Positions 16,496-28,912 are shown, numbered from the stretch's first letter. The stretch: DNA of 64,000 nt from Yuukianura sp. NJ FZ-2021 (GCA_046563655.1 CM102283.1:6510001-6574000); one strand, 5' to 3'. Notes: generated by a model not told the origin, from the letters alone. Numbers and translations are program-made.

Positions 16496-18178
16496 TCAGT
16501 GTTCGGCAGTCCCAATAAGCATTTGGTAGTTCACATCTCTGACATGGTGAAAATAGTGTCGAGGGCGGACGTTGCGGAGCGTTTGAAATGAGTCGATTTT
16601 GACATTGTCTCCTCCCCCTTGGTTACACCACGTCACGAATTCAGGCGAAACGAATTCTGGAAAATTCTCCAATCCCATTGCATTTACCGCTTCTCTATCC
16701 ATTACGAATTCATCTAGTGCAACCCCTTTAAGCGTCAGTTTTTGAGTTTTTGGAAATAAGTTCAGAAGCCAGCGAAGGTGCATTTTTCCAAAAACAGTCA
16801 CCGGGTAGCCATCTTGAATGAGCCAAGGAACCAGACCAAGCGACACTTCGGTCAAGTTAGGAAATTGTGACGGTTCGGTGACCTTGTCGAACAGTTCCGA
16901 CGATCCAGTTGGAATAAATCCGGTAAGAGACAAAGTCTTCAACGAAGATGGAAGCAGCAAGAGGTCAAGCAATTTGACCCTCCGATTTTTATATTCTGAG
17001 CAAAGTGTCAACTTCTTCAAGGCCAAACATGCTGCAAACCATGAGCAACTCAATGAGCGATGAGTGGGTTCCTCCACTCTCTCCATTGATCCAATTCTAA
17101 TTTCCTCCAATGTGGCACAATTGTTTTTGACGATGTTTCCAATTTGTTCCAACTCTTCTTCATTCGTGTAGCAGATGACCAGATTCTTCATGTTCAACTG
17201 TGTTGCAAAAATTTTCAAGGCCATTCTTGTACGTTGACGGTTCTCAGGACGAGACGCTTCGAAATTAAACAAGCAAGATTCGACAATTTGAAATCTCTGA
17301 TTGGTCGAATTTGTGATGGCAGGAGATGACTCTGAGGCGCTTGCGTATCGATGGAATCTGATGAACAAAGTTACAGATTGAGCTCTACCGAAGAGTTCTT
17401 CAACCGTAATGAGCTGGAGGGATTGACATTGTTCGTCCAGAATCCGTTTCATGACGATGTTTGCGAAATCTCCGCGGAGCGGTTGATCTAAAACTCCTGG
17501 AAAAAGCAGCCGCAAAACGTTTTCAATGTTGAAGAGTGAACTGAGGTTCATTTCTCTCAAGCAATTGAATTTCATCCGATGACAAACATGGTCAGTCACT
17601 AGTAGAAGGTCATGCTTCTCTTCAATCTTCGGCATTCCAATGTTCAATTTCGTCACCTCAAGCACGAGTTCATCAGCTGAAATGTTGAACTTTGAAAGAG
17701 TTCGGTAGTCGTCGAGTGAGACATAACTGATCGTGACTGATTGGACTTTGCGACATCCGTCGAGGATGTTGACGACATTGTACTCTGGAATGTTGCCGGT
17801 GATTTCCAGATTGTTGACACGAGACATGAACTGTCCAAATTCAGGAGAAAGGTAGATTGGAAACTGGACAGAATTGAGTTTAAGATGGATTTTGGACACA
17901 GTAGTCATTTTGACAAAGGATTCCCAGTTGTGGTTGCCCATTTCCAACCGTGTTGGGTAGATAGAGTCGATGGTGTTGCGCCAGTAGGCGCAAACGGCTC
18001 GACTTCGCGCAAGGGCAGTAGCATCCAAATGTCCAAAGATGATATTGAGTAACTAAAAAGTTTAAATGGACGAATTAAACGTTAATTTTGTTGATTGTGA
18101 TTTAACAAGAGACGTTTGAATTACTTCTGGAGGTAGGTTATGGAAGTGTGTTTGTTGAATGTTGTCAGCAGTGGCCAT
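16496..18178 (-). CDS. F-box + LRR-like protein, paralog 1 (exons 18178-18125, 18052-16496; about 536 aa)
   Basis: Spliced N-terminus MATADNIQQTHFHNLPPE|LLNIIFGHLDATALARSRAVCAYWR is an F-box motif. Downstream LxxLxL repeats (LKKLTL, LKTLSL, LTEVSL). Confidence 0.85.
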
Positions 18179-19890: not shown

Positions 19891-20264
19891 AATTATTATT
19901 ATTGTTCATTTTTTTTTTACTGTGCAGTTGTTGATTGTAATTTTTCAAGCGTCACTCCTAGAAATGTATTAGGTTGACTTAAGGAAAACTTATCATCAAA
20001 TTTTCTTGAACTTTAGAAAATTCTTCTTTCCTAAAATGCGATTTTGTTTTCGGAGTACAGTGGATTCTCTAAATAAGGGACAGGAGCTCCTCCTCTTTCT
20101 CACTTTCACTCGAAGTCGCGGTACCGTAAAGTTTTAATTTTGGAGGGAACGTATGTTTCAGTTTATCGGCTTATTTTTTACGATTATTTTTTTTTTTTTG
20201 GTTAATTTTTTTTTGGTGCCAAACAAAAGTAATTAGATAATTAAATGAAATTAACTAATATTAA

Positions 20265-20479
20265 TGTAGTGTTTCGGCGCTTTTCAGCGCCTATCTCAAC
20301 TTCCCGTAAGTTTAGATTTAGAGTCCAGAGTGGCGGTAACTTTGAGAGTCACCACCACCCTGCCAAAAACCACACTTTTCGTCACTCGATAGTCAGGTTT
20401 CGAGCCAACAACATAAAATCCGAGATTTAAGTTTTGATTAAATAAATCATCATTTATTTAACTCGGCCGATACACCACA
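20265..20479 (+). repeat. 5' LTR
   Basis: TGTAGTGTTTCGG...GATACACCACA; contains AATAAA; matches 22677-22891. Confidence 0.95.
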
Positions 20480-20656
20480 TTTGGCGTGGCTAGTGAAGCA
20501 ACGATTCGACATCGTCACAGCAACAACCACACAACTGGATAACGGTAATCGTCAACTTTTGGGCACGGTAAATCGGAATTCGCCTCTCCCCACTAAGTTA
20601 CATTATCTAATCATTGTGAGTTGGTATAACTGATCATATCTGAGGAACAGCTAAAC

Positions 20657-22396
20657 ATGGCTTCTACCAGCTCTAAAACGACCCAGTCCGCAAACGTTAT
20701 CGGTTCGGTCCCGTCCTTTGATCATGACAAAGATGATTTCGACGACTGGACTGATCTCTTCAAGTTTTTTCTCTTGTCGAATGGTATCGACGAGAAGGAA
20801 CACGAGACACGATGCAGAGCTGTATTCTGTTCGTCCCTGGGCATGCGCACGTACACGCTGCTAAAGGATCTCCTGTCTCCTGACCTCCCTACGTCGAAAT
20901 CACTTCAAGTGCTCATCGACACGTTGTCGAGTCACTTCAAACCTTCACCTAAGGTAATTTCTGAAAGATTCAAATTCGGAAAAAGGGTACAGCAACATGG
21001 TGAGTCAGTTGCTGAATTTTTGGCTGAATTACGGAAATTAGCCACCACTTGTAAGTTCACATGTTGTTTAGACACTCGTCTTCGGGATCAGTTTATCTTA
21101 GGTTTAGGTAATGCTGCTGCCCAAAAACAACTGTTCACAAAGGAAAACGACATCTCCCTCGCCGACGTACTCTCTCTCGCCCAATCGCATGAACTTGCGA
21201 CCAAGTCGCAACAGCTGATTCGGGATGGGAACTCGGAAGAGAACGAGGAGACTGTCAACGCTGTTTTTCGTGAAGGGAAGGGTAATGGTAAAAAGTTTCA
21301 ACCAAAGTCTAATCATGTCCCACAGGATAACCAAAGCAGGAATTGTCCTAATTGCGGATCCAATCGTCACTCCAGTGCTAGGGACTGTGATAAAAAGGAC
21401 GTGGAATGTCACTCGTGCGGAAAACGGGGTCATTTCGCTAAATTCTGCAGGTCAAAGGGAAAGTCAGTCTCTGACCAACGTGACGAATCACCCGACAGCA
21501 GAATCTCGAATATCTCCTCGGTGAACCACGTTCACTCTGGGAGACGTAAGGAATTGTGTGTGTCACTAACTGTCAATGGTGTTTCCCATTCTTTTGAATT
21601 AGACACAGGTTCTGAGTACAGTCTGCTCTCCGAGGATTTTTGGAAATCGCTCGGCTCTCCGACTTTGAAGAAGTCCAACCTCATTTTCAAAGGATACTCT
21701 GGTGTCACATTTCGTCCAAAGGGTGAGTTGACTGCGACAGTCATGGACCATGGTCAAATTGTGTCACATCGGTTTCCAGTCACCACTGGTTCTTCCCTTC
21801 TTGGTCGTGACTTGATGGGTAAGGTAAAACTTAATTGGGGTGAAATTGGTAAAAGTCTGTCAAGTTGCAAATTTGTGAAAAACTTAACATTGGAAAGTGT
21901 TCTGGATGAGTTTATTACAGTTTTTCAAAATCCAACTGAGTCAGCCACGGACACCCGTGCAAAAGTCGTACACGACGAGGACGCCCAACCGGGGTCCCTC
22001 AAGTCTCGTCCAATCCCGTTCTCGCCAGGGTCAAAGGTCGACGAACAATTGGCACCGTTTTCGTTTCGTAAATTGGAGGAGGAGGAAGTGGCGTTGAACA
22101 CTGCAGTGCCAAAGCCAGTAACGTCACCTAGTCCAAAGTCCACTCCAAAGTCACAACAAAGTCTGAAGGTCACGTCTCCGTACTCGTCTGCTCCGATTCT
22201 GACTCCGCACATTCCTATGGAGAACACGAACGCCGATTCCAAACCCTCCCCGGAATACGAGTCACCGGAAGATGAAGACTACACTAGACCGTCCCCGGAA
22301 CCAAGTCCGTTTACTTCCCCGGAAGCAACTCAAGCCCCTGTGCCGACTCTATGTCGTCCGGTTCTTCCGCGTGCCGCGAAAGGCAAGAAAAACTGA
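20657..22396 (+). CDS. Gag-aspartic protease polyprotein (579 aa), no RT/RNase H/integrase
   Basis: Gag core (ERFKFGKRVQQHGESVAEFLAELRKLATTCKF, LRDQFILG), zinc knuckles CPNCGSNRHSSARDC and CHSCGKRGHFAKFC, retropepsin motifs LDTGS and LLGRD. No YxDD or integrase motifs; Pro/Ser-rich tail. Confidence 0.9.
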   Translation: MASTSSKTTQSANVIGSVPSFDHDKDDFDDWTDLFKFFLLSNGIDEKEHETRCRAVFCSSLGMRTYTLLKDLLSPDLPTSKSLQVLIDTLSSHFKPSPKVISERFKFGKRVQQHGESVAEFLAELRKLATTCKFTCCLDTRLRDQFILGLGNAAAQKQLFTKENDISLADVLSLAQSHELATKSQQLIRDGNSEENEETVNAVFREGKGNGKKFQPKSNHVPQDNQSRNCPNCGSNRHSSARDCDKKDVECHSCGKRGHFAKFCRSKGKSVSDQRDESPDSRISNISSVNHVHSGRRKELCVSLTVNGVSHSFELDTGSEYSLLSEDFWKSLGSPTLKKSNLIFKGYSGVTFRPKGELTATVMDHGQIVSHRFPVTTGSSLLGRDLMGKVKLNWGEIGKSLSSCKFVKNLTLESVLDEFITVFQNPTESATDTRAKVVHDEDAQPGSLKSRPIPFSPGSKVDEQLAPFSFRKLEEEEVALNTAVPKPVTSPSPKSTPKSQQSLKVTSPYSSAPILTPHIPMENTNADSKPSPEYESPEDEDYTRPSPEPSPFTSPEATQAPVPTLCRPVLPRAAKGKKN

Positions 22397-22676
22397 AAAT
22401 GTAACGGTTAGGTTACATAACTTGTAAGTATAGGTTAAGGTCCCAGTTTTCTAATTGTAACCTCCTCTCATAGAAAGGTCACTTCACTGTCCTCTACCTT
22501 AACCTACTTGACCCCCTCAGCGGATGGTCAAGTAAAACCTTGGTGCTGCTGGAGGCCTCGTCCACCTCCATGTCAAAGCAGTTGGTTCCCACCAAGTACC
22601 AAGAAGCTGAGGTCCTTATCCTTCTCTCTCCTTTTCCAAACGTTCTGGAAAGTAGCCTTTCGTAGAGAGGAAGGAA

Positions 22677-22891
22677 TGTAGTGTTTCGGCGCTTTTCAGC
22701 GCCTATCTCAACTTCCCGTAAGTTTAGATTTAGAGTCCAGAGTGGCGGTAACTTTGAGAGTCACCACCACCCTGCCAAAAACCACACTTTTCGTCACTCG
22801 ATAGTCAGGTTTCGAGCCAACAACATAAAATCCGAGATTTAAGTTTTGATTAAATAAATCATCATTTATTTAACTCGGCCGATACACCACA
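22677..22891 (+). repeat. 3' LTR
   Basis: Copy of 20265-20479, directly preceded by a polypurine tract. Confidence 0.95.
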
Positions 22892-24626: not shown

Positions 24627-26306
24627 TCAGTGTTCGGCGGTCCCAATAAGCATTTGGTGCGCCACATTGCTGACATGACGAAAATAGTTTGGAGGGCGGA
24701 CGTTGCGAAGCGTTTGAAATGAGTCGATTTTGACATTGTCTCCTCCCCCTTGGTTACACCACGTCACGAATTCAGGCGAAACAAATTCTGGAAAATTCTC
24801 CATTCCCATTGCATTTACAGCTTCTCTTCGCATAATGAATTCATCTAGTGCAACCTGTGTAAGCGTCAGTTTTCGAGTTTCTGGAAACAAGTTCAGAAGC
24901 CAGTGAAGATGCATCTTTCCAAAAACAGTCACTGGGTTTTCATCTTGAATGAGCCAAGGAAGCAAACCGAGCGACACTTCGGTCAAATTCGGAAATTGCG
25001 ACGGTTCGATGACCTTGCCGAACAGTTCCGACGATCCAGTTGGAATAAATCCGGTAAGAGACAAAGTTTTCAAAGAAGATGGAAGTAGCAAGACGTCAAG
25101 CAATTTGACCCTCCGATTTTTATATTCTGAGCAAAGTGTCAGCTTCTTTAAGGCCAAACATGCTGCAAACCATGAACAACTGAATGAGCGATGAGTTGGT
25201 TCCTCATTCTCCATTGATCCAATTGTAATTTCCTCCATTGTGGCACAATTGTTTTTGACGATGTTTCCAATTTGTTCCAACTCTTCTTCATTTGTGTAGC
25301 AGATGACCAGATTCTTCATATTCAACTGTGTTGCAAAAATTTGCAAAACCAGTCCTGTACGTTGACGGTTCTCAGGACGAGACATTTTGAAACTAAACAA
25401 GCAAGAATCGAAAATTTGAAATCTCGGATTGGTCGAATTTGTGATGGCGGGAGAAGACTCTGAGGCGCCTGCGTATCGATGGAATCTGATGAAAAATGGT
25501 ACAGATTGAGCTGTACTGAAGAGTTCTTGAACCGTAATGAGTTGGAGGGATTGACATTGTTCGTCCACAATCCGTTTCATGACGGTGTTTGAGAAATCTC
25601 CGTCGGGCGGTTTCTCCAAAACTCCTGGGAAAAGCAGCCGCAAAACGTTTTCAATGTCGAATACTGCACTGAGCTTCAATTCTGTCAAGCAATTGAATTT
25701 CATCCGATGACAAACATGGTCAGTCACCAGTAGAAGGTCATGCCTGTCTCCAATTTTCGGCATTCCAATTTTCAATTTCGTCACCTCAAGCATGAGATCA
25801 TCAACTGAAATGTTGAAGTTTGGAAGAGTTCGGTAGTCGTCGAGTGAGACATAACTGATCGTGACAGATTGGACTTTACGACATCCGTCGAGGACGTTGA
25901 TGACATTGTACTCTGGAATGTTGCCGGTGATTTCCAGATTGTTGACACGAGACATGAACTGTCCAAATTCAGGAGAAAGGTAGATTGGAAACTGGACAGA
26001 ATTGAGTTTAAGATGGATTTTGGACACAGTAGTCATTTTGACAAAGGATTCCCAGTTGTGGTTGCCCATTTCCAACCGTGTTGGGTAGATAGAGTCGATG
26101 GCGTTGCGCCAGTAGGCGCAAACGGCTCGACTTCGCGCAAGGGCAGTAGCATCCAAATGTCCAAAGATGATATTGAGTAACTAAAAAGTTTAAATGGACG
26201 AATTAAACGTTAATTTTGTTGATTGTGGTTTAACAAGAAACGTTTGAATTACTTCTGGAGGTAGGTTATGGAAGTGTGTTTGTTGAATGTTGTCAGCAGT
26301 GGCCAT
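24627..26306 (-). CDS. F-box + LRR-like protein, paralog 2 (exons 26306-26253, 26180-24627; about 535 aa)
   Basis: Same exon structure and F-box as paralog 1; intact ORF. Confidence 0.85.
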
Positions 26307-26948: not shown

Positions 26949-28912
26949 TCAGTTTGGGTTGTTCCGAATAACTATTTCGTAGACGTCTTCAGTAATACGA
27001 AACGTTTGTTCGGATTGGCTGTGTGAAACTGCAATCGATTCAATTTCATTTCCTCTCCCTCCACTGCGACACCAATCCAAAAATTCAGATGAAACAGGAT
27101 TAGAAACACTTTCCAGTCCAATTGCATTCACAATCCATTCTGATAAGATTTCCTCAGGATTGAAAGCCTTCAGCGTCAGATTTCGAATTTTTGAAAACGA
27201 GTTGCGAAGCCAATCGAACGTTGATTTTTCAAAAACGACAACTGGCGTTTCGTTTTGAAGAAGCCATGGAAGGTAGCTGAGCGACATTTGAGTCAAGTTC
27301 GGGTGATCTGGTGTTCCGGCGACATTGAGCCAATCTGATGGTCCAGTCGGAATAAATCCAGTAAGAGACAAGGTTTTCAAAGAAATCGGAAGTTGAAAAA
27401 AATCAAGCAATTTGACTTTGCGATTTTCAAAATTGGCAGACAGCGTCAGTTTTTCCAGTTTTGAACATGTTGCAAAAGTTTTGCAACTGAAGGTTCTGTA
27501 AGTTCCTTGCATAGGTTCAAATGAGCGAATTGTAATTTCTTCCAGAGTTGTAGCATTTTTACAGATGATGCTTTCAATTTGATCCAAATTTGCTTGGTTG
27601 AAGTAGTAAATCACAAGATTTTTCATTCTGGACTGCTTCTCATAAATTTGTAAAATCGTTTGAAGAAATTCAGGGTTGGGAGGATCCAGAATGTCCAGAG
27701 AAATCAAACATGACTTTAAAATCTGAGGCTGATGATTGAGGAAATACGGCGTTGTACAACGATAAAATGTGATGTAGGGTTTAGCCATTGAAAGCAGGAT
27801 GCCAAATTCATCGGTAAAAGTGATCCGTTCGAGTGATCGACTTTGTTTCGTCAAAATCAGGCCAATGACGTTGTTCTTGTAACCGATTGGCTTAGGCTCA
27901 TTCAAAACATCGGCGTAGATCCATCGCAAAATATTTTCGGTGTAAAAAACACGGCACACGGTTAGTTCCTTCAAACAATTTCTTTGGAGCAGGCGACCAA
28001 CATGATTAACCAGAGCAACAAATTCACGATCCATATAATCTAGACAAAGTTAAAAAGGTCAACTCAATTAGATCAACAGAACAAATTCAAATGTATCAAT
28101 TGAATACGTTTGGTCAACTGAAATGTGTCAACTGCAACTTTTAGGTCAACTGAAAATGTTTCGACAACAGCAAAATTCTACCAAAATCCAAATTATGTAG
28201 CGTTGTTTTAGGCCAAGTAAAGTGAATACGTTATGTTGATACAATTTGGGTGTTGATCAAACTAACCGTAAACCCAAATGTATTTGAAGCATTTGAGTTG
28301 ACACAATTACCGTTGCCACATTTGTGTTGATCAAAATCGTACCGTCATAGGGAAATCCAAGGTACAATTTGCTCAGTCGCAGCCGCGGTAGGTCCTCCGT
28401 TAAAGTATGTTCCTGGAGAGTCCGATAGTCGTCCATCGTCACATTGTTGATACACAACGAAGTAAGTTTACGACATTCGTTGAGAATGTTGACGACATTG
28501 TAAGCTGGAATGTATCCCGTGAGCTGTAGAATTCTCACACGAAACATGAAGTTTTTGAATTCTGGTGCGAGGTAGACCGGGAACTGTAAACTTTTCAGTT
28601 TGAGACAAATTCTGGATGCTGTTGAATGCTTGACGTAGGCTTCCCAGTTGAAGTTAGTCATTTCCAAGTAAGTATTGTAGCCAGATTGAATGATATTTCG
28701 CCAATAGCAGCAAACGCTTCGCATACGCGCCAGGTCAATGTCATCCATGTCGTCAAAAACCATATTCAGGAGCTAAACAAGTCACAGTTTGGCGCATAAA
28801 TTCAGAGTTAGCCGTTTCTAATTTCAACTCATTTAAACGTAAAAACAAACGTTTGAGATACCTCGGGAGGGAGATTATTGAAATTTAGTTGGACAGTAGC
28901 ATCAGTTTCCAT
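26949..28912 (-). CDS. Divergent F-box + LRR-like protein, paralog 3 (exons 28912-28862, 28772-28343, 28039-26949)
   Basis: METDATVQLNFNNLPPE|LLNMVFDDMDDIDLARMRSVCCYWR F-box. Shares QFPVYLAPEF, MKNLVIYY and SLKTLSLTGFIPTG with paralogs 1/2. A phase-1 GT-AG intron joins the two ORF-track pieces. Confidence 0.8.

Follow-up and report, generated by a model that had tools for sequence, protein, structure and literature searches.

The locus described here raises the question of why a retrotransposon that no longer encodes a reverse transcriptase (RT) or an integrase should keep an intact gag gene. It lies in a 64,000-nucleotide stretch of the genome of Yuukianura sp. NJ FZ-2021 (GCA_046563655.1 CM102283.1:6510001-6574000), which is referred to here as the window. 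The element occupies positions 20265 to 22891 of the plus strand (2,627 bp) and had been described in an earlier note, made from the sequence alone, as a semi-autonomous parasite that builds and matures its own capsid and borrows Pol in trans. The data support a propagating, non-autonomous lineage served by Pol in trans, and to that extent the description stands; construction and maturation of its own capsid can be proposed from patterns of sequence constraint. A single in-frame deletion removed RT, RNase H, and integrase and fused Gag-protease to the integrase tail, and the deleted form has inserted at two sites, each time with a fresh pair of long terminal repeats (LTRs) and a fresh target site duplication (TSD), with RT and integrase coming from elsewhere. 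The element is well supported as a member of a small non-autonomous lineage, and we regard it as probably a semi-autonomous Gag-protease derivative of a single-frame, Mag-like Ty3/gypsy family whose RT and integrase it uses in trans.

All the structural components listed in the earlier note were recovered (Table 1). The LTRs are identical at 215/215 positions, have TG...CA termini, and are bordered on either side by ATTAA; a primer-binding site (PBS), a polypurine tract (PPT), and one uninterrupted open reading frame (ORF) of 579 amino acids (aa), with a capsid, two zinc knuckles, a DTG protease (aa 316), and a pol tail, lie between them. The lack of any LTR difference bounds divergence at <1.4%, and the insertion is therefore young. 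The TSD is real, because the sequence on the left derives from a high-copy repeat, and in 11/11 paralogous copies inspected ATTAA occurs just once, directly ahead of the TA-rich sequence seen on the right. Over 13 nt, the PBS is complementary to the 3' terminus (with CCA) of the host tRNA-Ser(AGA), for which two genes were found; the loci matched by an earlier tRNA search pattern (11/11) were not tRNAs.

The protease was recognized by Pfam (PF13650, E value of 3.6e-6, above the curated cut-off), and its predicted fold matches the EIAV, FIV, HIV, and Ddi1 proteases. Pfam matches to gag and to the knuckles were weak (E values of 0.13 and 0.035), and no RT, RNase H, or integrase domain was detected by Pfam in the 579-aa product. 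Assignment of the N-terminal region as capsid rests on its predicted fold: the AF2 model has a pLDDT of 95, and nearly all of the top fold matches are capsids (dArc1, PNMA2, MLV, PEG10, and Ty3), the best at an E value of 2.7e-3 and none at ≤0.001. A segment that had been called a pre-RT linker remnant aligns, as proposed, with the segment of the full-length relatives immediately before the RT core, and the Pro/Ser-rich tail, taken earlier for a pol C-terminal extension, corresponds to the integrase C-terminal extension of those relatives, joined directly after VDEQL and predicted to be mostly disordered from aa 482. A basic motif at the end of the tail (22370-22393), which we take to be a possible nuclear-localization signal, has been retained by both deleted copies and by 4/4 long copies reaching it.

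A search of the genome with the whole element gave 23 matches, and the copy counts that follow are lower bounds. The note had asked for further copies with the same junction and a different TSD, and one such copy (L024) was found on another contig: it is 2,622 bp long and 88% identical over its full length, has LTRs identical at 216/216 positions and the TSD TTAAT, and contains an intact 576-aa ORF whose product is identical to that of the window element in 507/580 alignment columns. The same junction at two loci, each with its own TSD, identifies a propagating lineage rather than the unique deletion that would have counted against the note's view, and at least two insertions with new LTR pairs and TSDs require that RT and integrase came in trans. 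A search with the LTR gave 16 matches and revealed neither solo LTRs nor further close copies; only the four LTRs of the two deleted copies exceeded 90% identity. The junction is spanned by a contig from sequencing run X2 that shows 17 differences from the window copy, as many as L024 shows over the same interval, and a contig from run X1 (22050-22560) differs from the window copy at 6 sites, L024 differing at 63, which hints weakly at one more allele or copy. Run X5, labeled as another organism, contains relatives over Gag, the protease, and the 3' end, on contigs that leave the junction uncovered.

Full-length relatives, for which the note had suggested a search, are also present. Five long copies, 78-81% identical to the element, align with it as far as element position 1788, and in most of them the alignment picks up again at 1791. 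An open frame of 1,381 aa runs uninterrupted in one of them, with domains in the Ty3/gypsy order of protease (305-342), RT (523-651), RNase H (714-848), and integrase (959-1120); the remaining four are truncated or disrupted by a stop, frameshifts, or insertions. Relative to two full-length copies, 2,385 nt (795 codons; RT, RNase H, and integrase) are absent in frame, which bears out the proposed in-frame loss of the enzymatic core. Deleted and full-length copies have the PBS, the PPT, and the LTR ends in common, and the LTR bodies of the full-length copies are 74-76% identical to those of the element. Just upstream of the two parental breakpoints, 8/9 nucleotides match in register, with the crossover about 6 nt further on; a match this good or better occurs in about 0.2% of random position pairs, a figure to be read with the knowledge that the window of comparison was chosen after the match had been seen. 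These features fit a deletion that arose by a template switch at short in-register homology, which would explain the kept frame without selection.

The ratio of nonsynonymous to synonymous substitution rates (dN/dS), a check that had been suggested for the ORF, is 0.19 overall between the two deleted copies (bootstrap, 0.14-0.26) and 0.08 for Gag. By region, it is 0.03 in the deleted pair versus 0.02 in full-length pairs for capsid, 0.12 versus 0.06 for nucleocapsid, and 0.23 (bootstrap, 0.11-0.43) versus 0.14 for protease; the pol remnants differ, with 2.5 (from only 8 nonsynonymous changes and 1 synonymous change) versus 0.01 for the RT remnant and about 0.57-0.59 (bootstrap, 0.32-1.07) versus 0.13 for the tail. 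Residues invariant among full-length copies were changed in a deleted copy at 26/286 positions of capsid, nucleocapsid, and protease and at 44/124 positions of the RT remnant and tail (p=5e-10), which indicates that the lineage is old enough for its pol remnants to have decayed while Gag was kept. About 194 substitutions have produced no stop codon (neutral P=0.002). Within the ORF, the indels measure 3, 3, and 9 nt, apart from a +1/-1 pair separated by 5 nt and a 1-nt gap assigned to the stop codon. Outside it, 20 indels were scored, each of 1-2 nt, including 3 that repeat the same LTR indels. The segments in which the two deleted copies are distant from every full-length copy likewise appear constrained (dN/dS of 0.24, p=7e-5, and 0.33, p=0.007). 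On this pattern of substitution, decay is evident in the pol remnants but not in the capsid or nucleocapsid or, with less certainty, in the protease; apparent constraint is strong in the capsid, where it is partly confounded by recombination, and weaker in the protease.

Both deleted copies look mosaic with respect to the full-length pool, which suggests co-packaging. Synonymous divergence (dS) between them is 0.70 in the capsid and 0.08 in the nucleocapsid, and their LTRs show one difference in the first 122 nt and are much more diverged over the remainder. Neighboring informative sites are more compatible than expected (near-site incompatibility of 0.26 versus 0.37 permuted, p=0.001), and the branch between deleted and full-length copies measures 0.22-0.32 in three segments but 0.03-0.09 in the other three. 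If segments were imported in this way, the RNA of the deleted element would have been co-packaged with that of the family. The case for recombination is one of branch lengths and site compatibility, not of topology, since the deleted copies cluster together in 6/6 segment trees and longest-run tests against 5/5 full-length copies gave no significant single donor tract (p values of 0.13-0.26).

The last two results weigh against our interpretation, as do several others. Mosaic copies make the capsid dN/dS a weaker proof of selection within the deleted lineage, since part of the low value may have been imported from autonomous donors, sampled or not, and the constraint in segments far from the full-length copies could have been supplied by an unsampled subfamily. 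Lineage-specific protease changes are nonsynonymous in 9/15 cases (p=0.14 versus neutral), and the private protease changes of the window copy are mostly nonsynonymous (6.25 versus 2.75). The number of deleted copies found is small (at least 2), and the actual helper subfamily may be missing from the assembly, given that even the closest full-length copies reach no more than 78-81% identity (LTRs, 74-76%).

We suggest that LTR-driven RNA of the deleted element would be translated to a Gag-protease-tail protein, which would enter mixed particles together with Gag-Pol from full-length members of the family. The RNA would be primed by tRNA-Ser(AGA), reverse transcribed and integrated by the enzymes of the full-length members, and could exchange segments with co-packaged RNAs. 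The components of this proposal differ in strength: mobilization in trans by this Mag-like family is very probable; that the Gag of the element itself is made and selected is quite likely, to judge from the capsid constraint; activity of its own protease is moderately likely; and a cis-preference of its Gag for its own RNA can be put forward tentatively.

It is also conceivable, if unlikely, that the element is a pure parasite, its RNA packaged by full-length Gag, its own ORF idle, and its capsid sequence refreshed by recombination with autonomous RNAs. The capsid is indeed the most mosaic-looking region, in its dS relative to nucleocapsid and in its short separating branch, the protease shows weak constraint in the lineage-specific test, and the microhomology accounts for an in-frame junction without selection. 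An idle ORF is, however, difficult to reconcile with constraint far from the sampled full-length copies (aa 170-269: 6 synonymous and 3 nonsynonymous changes, p=0.003) or with a decaying, junction-linked tail that has no stop and whose internal indels (3 and 9 nt) all preserve the frame. A more ambitious extension of the semi-autonomous reading is a two-component, mutually dependent animal retrotransposon in which the deleted lineage would be a source of surplus Gag and protease and the full-length partner a source of RT and integrase, the two keeping their capsids compatible by exchange of capsid segments during co-packaging. The parent family (one copy, the 1,381-aa frame) and its sister families encode Gag and Pol in one frame, at 1:1, and Ty1/Copia elements obtain surplus Gag from a spliced RNA (PMC8892269). 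We consider such mutual dependence improbable.

A defective-interfering or restricting role, in which surplus Gag-protease would dilute Pol and damp the family and which the host would tolerate or favor as a first step toward a domesticated capsid gene, is very unlikely. The capsid is intact and apparently constrained, its predicted fold resembles those of dArc, PNMA2, and PEG10, as would that of any Ty3/gypsy capsid, and the family is low in copy number with most of its long copies broken. Nevertheless, both copies are young (LTR differences of 0/215 and 0/216) and lie at unrelated sites, the window copy inside a high-copy repeat, and nothing points to the fixed, old, orthologous, and immobile locus that characterizes domesticated capsid genes such as Arc, PEG10, and PNMA. 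The route to Arc/PEG10-like genes envisaged in the earlier note therefore has no support from these two LTR-bounded insertions with intact TSDs, which bear no sign of domestication.

A splice-donor-like GTGAGT lies 9 nt inside the missing segment, just past the protease-RT boundary, and is conserved in 5/5 long copies covering it (L025-L029); it could serve a spliced Gag-protease RNA of the parent or merely represent M-V-S codons. It might be argued that the element is a retrotransposed subgenomic RNA of this kind and not a deletion, since the single Gag-Pol frame of the parent would need surplus Gag and the Ty1/Copia RNA provides a precedent, but in none of the copies examined does the missing segment start with GT or end with AG, and the 9 nt that precede the donor-like motif have been lost, so that this origin is largely refuted and highly improbable. 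A one-off deletion, a segmental duplication, or an assembly collapse can be set aside, even if the junction-bridging run X2 may be the source sample of the assembly itself, because the two copies lie on different contigs with different TSDs and flanks, have bodies 12% apart and identical LTRs in each case, and share one junction, and because the window contains no N.

Table 1. Features of the element in the window (positions counted from the first nucleotide of the 64,000-nucleotide stretch)
Feature	Position	Strand	Remark
Left TSD, ATTAA	20260..20264	+	Single copy at 11/11 paralogous empty sites
5' LTR, 215 bp, TG...CA	20265..20479	+	Identical to 3' LTR
PBS, 13 nt, tRNA-Ser(AGA)	20482..20494	+	First 12 nt identical across 6 copies compared
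Single ORF, 579 aa, Gag-protease fused in frame to pol C-terminal tail	20657..22396	+	
Capsid, two-lobed and helical, about aa 15-191	20699..21229	+	Predicted fold; dN/dS of 0.03 over aa 15-185
Nucleocapsid, knuckles CX2CX4HX5C (21344-21388) and CX2CX4HX4C (21407-21448)	21344..21448	+	Motif, weak Pfam match
Retroviral-type aspartic protease, DTG at 21602-21610, LLGRD motif kept	21542..21856	+	Pfam PF13650, fold match
RT-leading segment remnant, ends VDEQL, decaying	21962..22051	+	13/28 full-length-invariant residues changed in deleted copies
Deletion junction 22051/22052 with in-register microhomology	22038..22052	+	Same junction in copy L024
Pro/Ser-rich integrase C-terminal tail, basic motif at end, in frame, apparently under relaxed selection	22052..22396	+	
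PPT, adjoins 3' LTR	22664..22676	+	
3' LTR, 215 bp	22677..22891	+	Identical to 5' LTR
Right TSD, ATTAA	22892..22896	+	Paralogous empty sites

The high-copy repeat in which the element is nested (window positions 20056-20264 and 22897 to about 23460) begins with TACAGTGG, carries a 19-bp tandem array, and is presumably Tc1/mariner-like; 40 of 105 candidates were scored, most of them 94-98% identical. It is flanked by tandem paralogous open frames on the minus strand (16496-18052, 24627-26180, and 26949-28049), which we take to have an F-box-like start and a leucine-rich repeat-like body. Elsewhere in the genome, another deletion derivative of the same family (L031:2027-5900, G000:C1) has no gag, protease, or RT; it contains broken RNase H-integrase remnants, a partly duplicated 5' LTR, and an intact TSD, and its primer site matches tRNA-Ser(AGA) over 27 nt versus 12-13. 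A Gag-protease deletion of the present kind was seen in none of 11 further Gag-related sister-family loci, two of them incompletely seen (L117 is truncated within RT, and the sequence of L121 considered here stops short of its end). Several of the 11 have single frames of 1,368-1,418 aa, and a 562-aa frame in L115 belongs to a frameshifted full-length copy. Two sister gypsy copies about 11.5 kb apart (L115:1238-5814 and L116:1282-5859, G000:C3), one frameshifted, share flanks and TSD and are either a local duplication or an assembled haplotype pair.

The closest named homologue of the product is from the springtail Orchesella dallaii (46% identical), and one homologue is named K02A2.6-like. 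The protein search yielded 25 matches among 8,000 scored candidates, all devoid of genomic context, so that matches of Gag-protease length are not callable as deleted elements. A profile search of the PDB was dominated by RT columns from longer homologues, and an outdoor metatranscriptome (word share of 0.07) contained two short, diverged matching contigs.

The features of the family fit a Mag-like placement, made from the PBS, TSD, LTR size, ORF number, and knuckles. A tRNA-Ser PBS (tRNA-Ser/Leu in the clade), a 5-bp TSD, LTRs of about 200 bp, a parent of about 5 kb with one ORF (one or two in the clade), and two CCHC-type knuckles are features of Mag elements (PMC3286476, PMC2577118); the first knuckle here has 5, not 4, residues after the His. 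A table of Culex elements lists short, young Mag copies of 2,887 and 3,248 bp, which the available part of that paper does not analyze as a propagating Gag-protease lineage (PMC3286476). We found no literature report of a propagating Gag-protease deletion lineage in an invertebrate Mag-like element, in a survey that had most subscription papers, Repbase, and supplements outside its coverage, and closer cases may exist in the supplements to the papers on wheat and Culex.

The earlier note had assigned the element to the TR-GAG type and regarded Gag-only elements as mainly a plant matter, and neither view is sustained. Plant TR-GAG elements are <4 kb long and have LTRs, a PBS, a PPT, a 5-bp TSD, and one Gag ORF in at least 2 copies, all of which the window element shares, but the defining screen excluded aspartic-protease similarity (Chaparro et al. 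2015, PMC4350172), and the window element, with its PF13650 match and protease fold, is not a TR-GAG by that screen; TR-GAG1 is, moreover, described in the available text without a full-length partner, whereas the parent family of the window element is in the same genome. Animal non-autonomous elements of related kinds have been published. Zebrafish BHIKHARI Bik-1 and Bik-2 and chicken ENS-1 are likewise recently active, non-autonomous LTR elements, intact gag without pol being stated for Bik-1 and Bik-2; they differ in being gag-only elements of endogenous retrovirus type with hundreds of insertions and host developmental roles (PMC12067270); no developmental role is indicated for the window element. 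In mouse IAP 1-delta-1, an internal deletion also created a gag-pol fusion ORF that acts in cis in a non-autonomous yet inserting element, but this is a class II endogenous retrovirus in which a 1.9-kb deletion takes part of gag and pol, so that both are needed in trans (PMC6466679); Gag and protease of the window element are whole. The wheat element RLG_Quinta, partnered by RLG_Cereba, lost RT and integrase, kept GAG, shares the PBS and LTR termini of its partner, and shows recombination in the GAG region; it differs in having GAG plus a domain of unknown identity and no protease and in being centromeric and old (PMC11302176). A sugar-beet study argues that such non-autonomous categories blur (PMC13570524).

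The closest counterparts are RLG_Sabrina_SA and RLG_WHAM of wheat, gypsy elements described as semi-autonomous, in which the GAG-protease ORF is intact and RT and integrase are absent; they are mobilized by an autonomous partner and thought to contribute Gag (Wicker et al., PMC9744471). The window element has the corresponding organization: an intact Gag-protease ORF in an LTR-PBS-PPT element with no coding for RT or integrase; propagation, at the minimal number of two copies with the same junction and different TSDs; and an autonomous partner with the same PBS, PPT, and LTR termini. Sabrina_SA and WHAM are 8-kb plant elements that number in the thousands and have millions of years of co-evolution behind them (PMC9744471), whereas the present element is an animal element of 2.6 kb, with at least 2 copies, a clean in-frame deletion that keeps the integrase tail, and a parent 78-81% identical. 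It reveals no new mechanism and no domesticated gene, the arrangement having already been described in wheat, with related forms in fish and mouse. It does offer a compact natural experiment on the retention of gag by non-autonomous LTR elements, with parent and derivative in one genome, a single clean deletion, and a decayed RT remnant as an internal neutral control beside an apparently constrained capsid, and it extends the semi-autonomous GAG-protease life style of the wheat elements to an invertebrate, Mag-like gypsy family.

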